Assembly (NCBI GenBank): GCA_030679145.1
Contig: JAUXTU010000057.1
Coordinates: 1,220 to 65,219 of the forward strand
Direction of reading: 5' to 3'
Length of the DNA stretch: 64,000 nt
Source of the DNA: Bacteroidota bacterium
GTDB taxonomy: Bacteria > Bacteroidota > Ignavibacteria > UBA10030 > UBA8401
Both the position numbers and the translations under genes were made by a program. The notes beneath the pieces are model-generated. The model was not told the DNA's origin and did no database searches. It saw only the letters and a program-made list of their open reading frames with translations. Each line of letters starts with the position of its first letter. The stretch's first letter is position 1. Shown in pieces: positions 37,774 through 38,069 of this stretch.

Positions 37774-37922
37774 CAAGGAGAATCAAACAATACAGGTTAT
37801 ATATAAAATTCACTCATTGCAATTCGAGGTCATTTTCTTTAAACTGCACCAGAATATAATAGGAGTAGCACAAATAATTTAACAGATAAATTTTTTTAAT
37901 ATCGCGTAGCTTCGCTACTTGT

Positions 37923-38069
37923 CTCCGTCCGAATACTACCACTATTCAAAGACAATACGAAATAATAGCTCGGTTGCGCCCCGAAAGGGGCGTGGCTCGA
38001 AGCGCTTTCGTATTGGGCCTGTGGTAGGGCTTGGACGGAGGGCGTATAGAGTTCACGCCCTTTGTTTTT
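37923..38069 (+). ncRNA. Candidate structured RNA (long interrupted rod plus terminator), family unassigned
   Basis: Nested stems 37923-32/38031-40, 37936-42/38021-27, 37953-62/38006-15 and CGCCCC-GAAA-GGGGCG(37977-92); then GGGCGT/ACGCCC hairpin and a T-tract. G-U pairs and the GNRA loop favour the + strand. Confidence 0.6.

Follow-up and report, generated by a model that had tools for sequence, protein, structure and literature searches.

Background

Read-through can place the gene of 6S RNA and its downstream neighbour on one transcript, as happens for ssrS and ygfA in Escherichia coli. Riboswitch and attenuator leaders can also yield a stable short RNA by premature termination, as for SreA and SreB of Listeria. 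The element described here was found in a stretch of 64,000 nt of chromosomal DNA (about 39% GC) from a Bacteroidota bacterium (assembly GCA_030679145.1, contig JAUXTU010000057.1, positions 1,220 to 65,219). The whole stretch is called the window and all unassigned positions refer to it. The element lies directly upstream of a Type III restriction-modification (RM) operon (mod-res). It is a genuine, strongly conserved and previously uncatalogued RNA of about 170 nt from uncultured Bacteroidota. In the lineage of the window, the RNA is predicted to refold when its transcript continues towards the operon.

In shape, 6S RNA (ssrS), with its Bacteroidetes variant 6S-Flavo, is the closest known analogue. 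Like the element, it is rod-shaped, measures about 170-180 nt, has internal loops and a variable apical loop, carries a bubble some 45 nt from its 5′ end and is encoded by a single-copy gene. It differs in several respects: neither the window element nor five homologous loci match RF00013 or RF01685, the bubble of the element is small and asymmetric (10 x 5 nt) whereas 6S RNA needs about ten or more unpaired nucleotides on both strands, sequence conservation is much higher than usual for 6S RNA, and the distribution is patchy. The closing-stem pairing of the element is predicted and lacks covariation. The bacterial small signal recognition particle (SRP) RNA (4.5S) is also different, as no RF00169 match was found and the apical loop is variable in sequence and length instead of being a conserved GNRA loop. 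The lack of a large 6S central bubble and of the SRP loop had already been noticed in the initial annotation, made from the sequence alone. The literature surveyed contains nothing specific on 6S RNA in Ignavibacteria or on Type III leaders.

Leader-derived small RNAs (sRNAs) of the SreA/SreB type resemble the arrangement proposed below, in which one promoter would give a short terminated RNA and, by read-through, the operon mRNA. They differ in that no ligand-binding junction or antiterminator was found here, the alternative fold lies only past the terminator, and the same RNA also exists without the operon.

Toxin mRNAs of the hok type belong to type I toxin-antitoxin systems, which have been reviewed together with RM systems (PMC3874152). 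Their refolding, first co-transcriptional and then post-transcriptional, is the closest mechanistic analogue: in the full-length RNA of potentially lethal genes, a fold made early in transcription gives way to a long-range fold of greater stability, and a ribosome-binding site is sequestered. The differences are that no antisense partner is known here, that the cargo is a Type III RM operon and that refolding is predicted. Among RM systems, C (controller) proteins are the known protein regulators of Type II, and RNA regulators are listed for Type II only, namely the antisense RNAs of EcoRI and Eco29kI, which are transcripts from reverse promoters inside the Type II genes (PMC3874152). RNA-based control of a Type III RM operon is absent from this 2013 review (PMC3874152). 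The presumed need is the same in all cases, restriction being kept low and in step with methylation; the locus reported here differs by a sense-strand structured leader or sRNA upstream of a Type III operon. No C protein was found to be encoded in the window (Pfam survey).

Structure and conservation of the RNA

The minimum free energy (MFE) fold of the + strand (-76.7 kcal/mol) reproduces the four nested stems proposed in the initial annotation. These stems, the GTAGC/GCTAC hairpin upstream of them, the GGGCGT/ACGCCC stem with its T-tract and a TATAAT are all found where that annotation had placed them. None of 200 dinucleotide shuffles (-54.0 +/- 4.5 kcal/mol; z = -5.0) folds as well as the element, and the rod-shaped fold is thus beyond chance. 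The reverse strand folds less well (-65.1 kcal/mol). A covariance model (R1) gives 162-202 bits on the + strand of canonical homologues versus 20-45 bits on the reverse strand. This strong strand asymmetry is caused by G-U pairs and supports the reading of the element as a structured RNA of the + strand, as initially claimed.

The region 37899-38069 is read as coding for a discrete RNA of about 170 nt, in which a 5′ hairpin of the UUCG type precedes a rod of 120 nt, whose internal loops are conserved, and a last hairpin is followed by a U-tract (Table 1). The strongly conserved unpaired parts include, besides the 3x3 loop and the bubble (6-10 nt on the 5′ side; 5 nt, GGCCU, on the 3′ side), the sequence GGCUCGAAGC in the apical stem. 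The apical loop differs among homologues (GAAA, CCAA, CAUU, CGAU, GAAC, UAAU, UGAAAAA), and the GNRA loop used initially as an argument is not a conserved feature. The terminator-like hairpin is followed by TTTGTTTTT, which ends at 38069, 58 nt before the mod ATG at 38128. GAGUUC(A/G)CGCC and the U-tract are kept in all RNA types, in agreement with the 3′ end proposed earlier. This hairpin was not listed by the terminator scan because its loop has 9 nt and the limit of the tool is 8.

The comparative set includes 20 loci (the window and 19 others, numbered with L below), and many of the canonical RNAs are closely related. Over 14 canonical homologues from metagenomes and metagenome-assembled genomes (MAGs), 98.9% of the cells pair, 13 pairs are compensatory, and the covariation score is 0.29 versus about 0.05 with slid partners. 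When three homologues of divergent types are added, in an alignment that was fitted to the model and therefore favours covariation somewhat, 97.5% of the cells pair, 31 of the 53 pairs are changed on both sides and the score reaches 0.47 (0.06-0.11 for slid partners). The observed values are reached by no shuffle. The 5′ hairpin (P0) also covaries, three of its five pairs being compensatory once the divergent types are included. Covariation, whose test among homologues was one of the checks initially proposed, is thus found.

The 5′ end GCGUAGCUU can pair with GAGUUCACGC in the RNAalifold consensus (closing stem). In most sequences the energy of this fold differs by no more than about 1-3 kcal/mol from that of the local hairpins (up to 8 in L029), and the stem has three breaks and no covariation. 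A role of the closing stem as antiterminator was rejected, since this stem and the small hairpin end at one U-tract and covariation is lacking.

Distribution and family status

The exact sequence was found in one groundwater metagenome run, and near-identical 31-mers of the element in public groundwater, sediment, freshwater, peat, permafrost, wetland and rhizosphere runs. The flanks of these 31-mer contigs differ from the window beyond about 37803 and, in some of them, also beyond 38069. An exact 20-mer scan of JGI metagenomes gave at least nine true homologues among 17 matches, the other 8 being chance matches in coding sequences. A first GTDB scan with a 22-mer gave no match. A degenerate-pattern GTDB scan gave at least 43 loci, four of which were true after scoring with R1: three in MAGs labelled Bacteroidota and one in a contig binned as Candidatus Brennerbacteria. 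Contig retrieval guided by Mod added six RNA loci (L061/62, L063, L066-68, L077-80, L081-83). The collection scans give lower bounds on distribution and copy number (at least 20 loci). Two divergent RNA types are recognized, one in L063 (67 bits) and another in L066 and L081. Host GC content ranges from 38 to 54%, and the mean column identity is 84% over the first ten RNAs aligned.

The contig binned as Candidatus Brennerbacteria (L060, JAZDNP010000011.1) carries a canonical Bacteroidota-type RNA, and a Mod relative (P0047) is labelled as Patescibacteria group bacterium. Both contigs are probably mis-binned rather than from true hosts.

The scan of Rfam 15 asked for by the initial annotation matched no family to the element: there was no match at gathering thresholds over the whole window and none over the element at E<=10 (stretches of 177-501 nt). 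The Rfam matches near the element are terminator look-alikes at 37737-37821 and a 5′-hairpin look-alike (Acido-Lenti-1, 16 bits). The sbcD RNA motif (RF01757), a family from Burkholderiales, was rejected: it gives 28 bits versus a threshold of 40, only in L060, and is confined to the GC-rich apical hairpin. No match to the element was found in phage, plasmid and viral contig collections. There is one copy per locus, the four GTDB matches come from four different genomes, and no second copy was found in the window. The lack of Rfam matches, of phage or plasmid matches and of extra copies indicates a new structured RNA family, read on the + strand.

The same data bear on whether the element could act as DNA (a palindrome related to repetitive extragenic palindromic sequences or miniature inverted-repeat transposable elements (REP/MITE), a recombination site or a single-stranded DNA hairpin) rather than as RNA. 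A long imperfect palindrome that is GC-richer than its surroundings would fit such an element. The single copy per locus and in the 64-kb window, without visible target-site duplications, does not support a dispersed repeat. The G-U strand asymmetry, the U-tract that follows, the homologues in metatranscriptome contigs and the cUUCGg tetraloop, which stabilises RNA and not DNA (an argument used in PMC2864571), also point to RNA, and a DNA-level element is most improbable.

Expression

As judged from its sequence, the element looks like a discrete sRNA gene of about 170 nt with a Bacteroidota-type promoter box and a U-tract. The T-rich box TAAATTTTTTT would imply a transcript start near 37899-37903. 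Comparable boxes are found 8-14 nt before a conserved GCG in homologues, with a perfect TAAGTTTG in L008 and TAATTTTG in L057. The TATAAT put forward initially is present at 37855-37860 in the window; a close relative has TATTTA, and this hexamer is not a conserved feature. In the stretch from the U-tract to mod, the promoter scan detected no sigma-70-like promoter.

Six metatranscriptome runs (X17, X23-X26) contain contigs with homologues. A 179-nt contig (depth 19) is confined to the RNA, from -24 to about +155, just before the U-tract. Other contigs extend 27-69 nt past the U-tract into the spacer. These contigs, which give no mapped transcript ends, are suggestive of expression and of read-through.

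Pairing with the spacer and predicted refolding

The spacer that separates the U-tract from mod contains three segments complementary to the RNA (H1, H2 and H3; Table 1). The 13-bp complement to 38010-38022 located at 38075 is the longest one on the + strand of the whole window. In H2, a U-A pair of the window corresponds to C-G in its relatives; L011 shows U-A at the opposite end of the helix, and A-U is seen in L063. H2 is thus supported by three independent compensatory changes. Wobble-compatible changes are found in L005, L020 and L077. In H1, GUAUUGGGCC:GGUUCAAUGC is replaced by UUUGCGCGGU:ACCGCGCAAA in L063. Over H1 and H2 (alignment in which L063 was registered by hand), 91% of the cells are paired and 10 of the 19 pairs are compensatory, versus 31-50% and at most two for slid controls.

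Folded without constraints, the read-through transcripts of all seven loci tested adopt an MFE structure with H1 and H2, which is more stable by 10-17 kcal/mol than any fold with an unpaired spacer. Addition of the 40 nt that follow the U-tract gives a gain of -13.7 to -20.4 kcal/mol and 24-36 RNA:spacer pairs in these loci. Shuffled spacers give -4 to -7 kcal/mol, and values as low as those of the native spacer were reached in 0/60 shuffles for six loci and in 2/60 for the seventh. In nine loci devoid of RM genes, the downstream gain is at shuffle level with both 40 and 100 nt. In the predicted refolded form, the 3′ strand of P1 pairs with the U-tract and about 35 nt of the 5′ strand of the rod are mostly unpaired. 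The hairpin that encloses the Shine-Dalgarno (SD) sequence is kept in the window, L005, L007, L011, L020, L061, L063 and L077. Comparison and folding thus point to a co-varying long-range pairing in mod-linked leaders that would be mutually exclusive with the rod.

The spacer is only about 20 nt long in L066 (3960-4012 of that locus) and L081 (2960-3012). In both loci, pairing of GGAGUUCG, which is conserved, with CGGACUCC spans the U-tract, a GGCCG/CGGCC hairpin is directly adjacent to the start codon, and the first codons of mod are A-rich and can pair with the U-tract. A search of homologous loci for trans targets of the bubble region was too noisy when G-U pairs were allowed.

Table 1. Features of the RNA, of its spacer and of the downstream operon in the window. 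H1, H2, H3: helices formed with the spacer, positions being given as spacer segment : partner. ORF: open reading frame.
Feature	Position	Strand	Remarks
Candidate -7 element TAAATTTTTTT	37887..37897	+	T-rich box, Bacteroidota type; consensus TAnnTTTG
P0, 5′ hairpin GUAGC-UUC-GCUAC	37906..37918	+	cUUCGg tetraloop in most homologues; 98.5% paired
Linker and first P1 bases, UUGUCUC	37919..37925	+	Partner of spacer segment b (H2)
Rod	37922..38041	+	P1, 3x3 loop, P2, bubble, P3, apical stem
P1	37922-32/38031-41	+	Rod; the stem first listed is 37923-37932/38031-38040
3x3 loop AUA/GGC	Between P1 and P2	+	Strongly conserved, unpaired
P2 (CTACCAC/GTGGTAG)	37936-42/38021-27	+	Rod
Bubble	5′ side 37943-52, 3′ side 38016-20	+	Strongly conserved (UAUUCA.../GGCCU)
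P3	37953-62/38006-15	+	Rod
Apical CGCCCC-GAAA-GGGGCG	37977-37992	+	Loop 37983-86, variable
GUAUUGGGCCUGU	38010..38022	+	3′ strand of P3 and 3′ side of bubble; partner of spacer segment a (H1)
Terminator-like hairpin GGGCGU-AUAGAGUUC-ACGCCC, then UUUGUUUUU	38040..38069	+	Stem 38040-38045/38055-38060
Spacer with three RNA-complementary segments	38070..38097	+	GCCC, ACAGGUUCAAUGC, GAGACAA
H1, segment a ACAGGUUCAAUGC	38075-38087 : 38010-38022		Pairs with 3′ strand of P3 and 3′ side of bubble
H2, segment b GAGACAA	38091-97 : 37919-25		Pairs with UUGUCUC (linker and base of P1)
H3, GCCC	38070-73		Pairs with GGGC of the 3x3 loop
SD hairpin CGAAGCUCC-loop-GGAGCUUU	38103..38130	+	Sequesters the GGAG ribosome-binding site before the mod ATG
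mod, Type III (N6_N4_Mtase), 611 aa	38128..39963	+	Pfam E = 6e-46; homologues 63-81% identical
res, Type III (ResIII helicase-nuclease), 697 aa	39966..42059	+	Pfam
Small TnsA-like/RE_endonuc ORF	42007..42396	+	Pfam PF08722, E = 1.3e-10; overlaps the end of res

Linkage with mod-res and loci without mod-res

The RNA is found directly upstream of mod in the window, L005, L007, L011, L020, L061/62, L063, L066-68, L077-80 and L081-83. The genes that flank these RNA-mod loci vary (RNR, DAO/Y1_Tnp, DUF1016, GH44, PALP, SocA). In the lineage of the window, the RNA precedes mod-res-TnsA-like operons in six or more unrelated genome contexts. In a sample of 15 related Mod proteins (window included), the RNA lies directly upstream of eight of the nine mod genes whose products are at least 72% identical to that of the window (one lacks it) and of none of the six with at most 71% identity. 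In L011 the RNA, spacer and SD hairpin are the same up to the ATG, which begins another Type III mod, with 30% identity; the res that comes next is unrelated. L063 carries a Mod 79% identical to that of the window behind a much more divergent RNA. These two arrangements indicate that the RNA with its spacer is one module and the mod-res cargo another, and that the two can be separated.

The RNA is found without mod and res in nine loci (L002, L004, L008, L009, L010, L017, L029, L057, L060), where it lies upstream of genes encoding lipoproteins or secreted proteins of the type IX secretion system (T9SS) type. Therefore the RNA is not specific to the defence system and presumably has a role independent of the operon. 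The initial annotation had proposed, as one of two options, a trans-acting RNA component of the defence system; a dedicated component does not agree with these nine loci or with the 7 of the 15 related mod genes that lack the RNA.

A related hypothesis is that the RNA is a subunit, guide or cofactor of Mod, Res or the TnsA-like enzyme, or an RNA antitoxin. The RNA adjoins mod-res-nuclease genes in many loci, as would be expected. It occurs without these proteins in nine loci, however, and the proteins occur without it in seven sampled relatives; the same RNA and leader precede a non-orthologous mod-res pair in L011, and no variable guide-like segment is found except the apical loop. Such a role is very unlikely. 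No reverse transcriptase was found among the neighbours in the window or in related loci, contrary to what a retron would require.

A conserved four-gene cluster is found beside the RNA in the loci devoid of RM genes that have enough flank (4725-6772 of L029; L009, L010, L017, L057). It includes an XRE-type HTH_3 gene, a gene for an HTH_36 protein with an RWYW motif and genes for two tandem RuvC-like proteins (about 170 aa). Four of these loci have the cluster in divergent orientation to the RNA; in L057 it follows the RNA on the same strand. No homologue of it was found in the window.

Proposed mode of action

The preferred interpretation, to which a probability of about 0.5 is given, is that the element is an sRNA gene with a leaky terminator whose read-through transcript acts as a refolding leader and sets the expression of mod-res. 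In the lineage of the window, the RNA gene would double as promoter and leader of the Type III mod-res-TnsA-like operon. Most transcripts would stop at the U-tract and give the rod-shaped sRNA. Read-through transcripts would carry the 58-nt spacer, whose three segments could take hold of the rod, H1 and H3 at its 3′ strand and H2 at the base of the 5′ strand, so that the leader would leave the rod for a four-way, cross-shaped fold. In this new fold, the U-tract would be paired, about 35 nt of the A/U-rich 5′ strand of the rod would be freed and the ribosome-binding site of mod would still be in its hairpin. The output of the operon would then be set by the frequency of read-through, on which mod presumably depends, and by refolding, which may affect translation or stability. 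The freed strand might serve as a landing site for ribosomes, or the fold might slow or limit mod-res expression; both proposals are guesses.

Several points weigh against this interpretation. The U-tract region TGTTTTTG matches the Bacteroidota -7 box at 7/8 positions; a separate mod promoter at the U-tract, hence a free sRNA that pairs in trans with the mod mRNA, is conceivable. The metatranscriptome contigs are assembled at low depth and may include DNA. Most of the compensation in H1 comes from L063 alone. The SD hairpin is predicted in both folds, so that a translational effect is not evident from folding. The 3′ layout of L066 and L081 is another one: the spacer is short and the U-tract pairs with the A-rich beginning of mod. 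The nine loci without mod and res keep the RNA (84% mean column identity) without the refolding spacer. As the partners lie after the U-tract, refolding cannot control termination. No signal or sensor was found.

The initial annotation had proposed an attenuator staging methylase and nuclease expression as its other option. A cis-acting role remains plausible in this lineage, as there is no sigma-70-like promoter before mod, the spacer and SD hairpin are conserved and the spacer co-varies with the RNA. The alternative pairing lies downstream of the U-tract and involves no classical termination decision, and attenuation is supported only in the loose sense that a terminator would limit expression. 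In a classical attenuator or riboswitch-like leader, a ligand or protein bound to the rod would decide between terminator and antiterminator. The RNA is on the same strand as the next gene and 20-220 nt upstream of it in all 20 loci, it ends with a hairpin and a U-tract, and its conserved internal loops could bind a factor. No structure competing with the terminator was found, however; the closing stem would be a terminator stem in its own right, the alternative helices that co-vary are located past the U-tract, and the downstream genes are functionally unrelated (methyltransferase versus secreted/T9SS proteins) with a single copy of the RNA per genome. This classical form is unlikely.

The main rival to the refolding leader is a 6S-like or other protein-binding role. 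Under this view an sRNA of the housekeeping type, independent and acting in trans or by protein binding (e.g. a divergent 6S-like RNA that binds RNA polymerase), would lie in a hot spot where restriction cassettes and other accessory genes land, and the mod spacer would be a target or decoy of the free sRNA. This is possible, with a probability below that of the preferred interpretation. It agrees with a discrete single-copy gene with a promoter-like box and a U-tract, with the 179-nt contig confined to the RNA, and with the high conservation of both loops and stems across hosts of diverse GC content. It also agrees with the presence of the RNA without mod and res, and with flanks rich in HTH/ImmA genes, IS110 and IS200 transposases, a Cas2-like ORF and RuvC-like pairs. 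The geometry is 6S-like (a stem of about 41 nt, a bubble and an apical stem of about 62 nt, with ends that can pair nearly isoenergetically with the local hairpins), and divergent Bacteroidetes 6S RNAs have escaped the standard model before (6S-Flavo, PMC2864571). Against it, there is no match to the 6S or 6S-Flavo models at E<=10, the bubble is only 10 x 5 nt, and the closing stem has three breaks and no covariation. For a housekeeping RNA the spread is patchy, only 4 GTDB species being matched with a strict search pattern. The presence of the RNA before 8 of the 9 mod genes closest to that of the window, in differing contexts, looks like linkage and not like a chance effect of a hot spot. 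Pairing in trans would be out-competed by the intramolecular pairing of the read-through RNA. The RNA subunit of a restriction enzyme, the riboswitch-type attenuator and the DNA repeat are all unlikely.

As the RNA also exists alone in a sister group, it probably has an independent function besides the operon.

Genomic context

Upstream of the RNA, the window carries nuo genes, the gene of a ribonucleotide reductase (class II), a DUF2188 ORF and a Cas2-like ORF, which is small and has its own terminator. The RNA is followed by mod, res, the TnsA-like nuclease ORF, an acyl-ACP desaturase gene, response regulator genes and genes for PilB-type ATPases. A TnsA-like gene is also found 3′ of res in L061, L064-L067, L070, L071, L077 and L081-L085. 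As it recurs as a third gene, behind res, in most related operons, the system consists of mod-res and a small nuclease. No tRNA or tmRNA was found in the scan of the window.

Related operons are found in defence-type settings in L072 (5865-7213), L074 (6106-7470) and L085 (1-2985). Genes are inserted between mod and res in two related operons, HNH and DUF3800 in one and an SLFN/AlbA_2 ATPase gene in another, and one related operon directly follows a Piwi (prokaryotic Argonaute, pAgo)-SIR2 pair. These inserted genes and the Piwi-SIR2 neighbour indicate defence-island settings with modular insertions.

The DUF2188 ORF (76 aa, 37196-37426) is followed by the 82-aa ORF (37492-37739), whose weak Cas2-like match (E = 1e-4) is just under the Pfam cut-off. 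A strong bidirectional terminator lies after this ORF at 37741-37770. Judging from the sequence, the two ORFs may be a small toxin-antitoxin-like or VapD-like pair; this pair is not present in the other RNA loci.

Other features of the window are repeats and paralogues. Downstream of a response regulator gene, an ORF at 44458-45222 (254 aa, no Pfam match) contains about 25 head-to-tail units of 9 nt (44858-45203), which encode a protein made of three-residue repeats. Single-domain response regulator genes are found near each of two paralogous PilB/T2SSE ATPase genes (46734-48437 and 49166-50860), whose identity is 78% along a stretch of 51 nt. Repeated 37-nt units at 62272-63532, 24 kb from the RNA, encode BNR/Sortilin-like repeats that resemble the secreted protein encoded downstream of the RNA in L029 (tblastn E = 1e-14).

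Significance

To our knowledge, no RNA-based control of a Type III RM operon is known. A broader proposal, tentative and rather doubtful as a whole, is that of a novel RNA module controlling Type III RM, a portable platform in which a conserved sRNA gene and its co-evolving, self-refolding leader would be kept and different mod-res cargoes would be exchanged precisely where the start codon lies. By passing from rod to cross, the leader would work as a kinetic gate through which restriction is delayed or limited with respect to methylation, and the free rod would have a host-wide role, e.g. the binding of RNA polymerase or of another protein.

The comparative support is unusually clean (31 co-varying pairs and a second co-varying long-range fold), which makes the structural switch testable by simple means. 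With this RNA, an uncultured and little-studied branch of the Bacteroidota gains a strongly conserved orphan RNA. The presence of the same leader before non-orthologous mod-res pairs suggests how defence genes may be exchanged behind a fixed expression platform.

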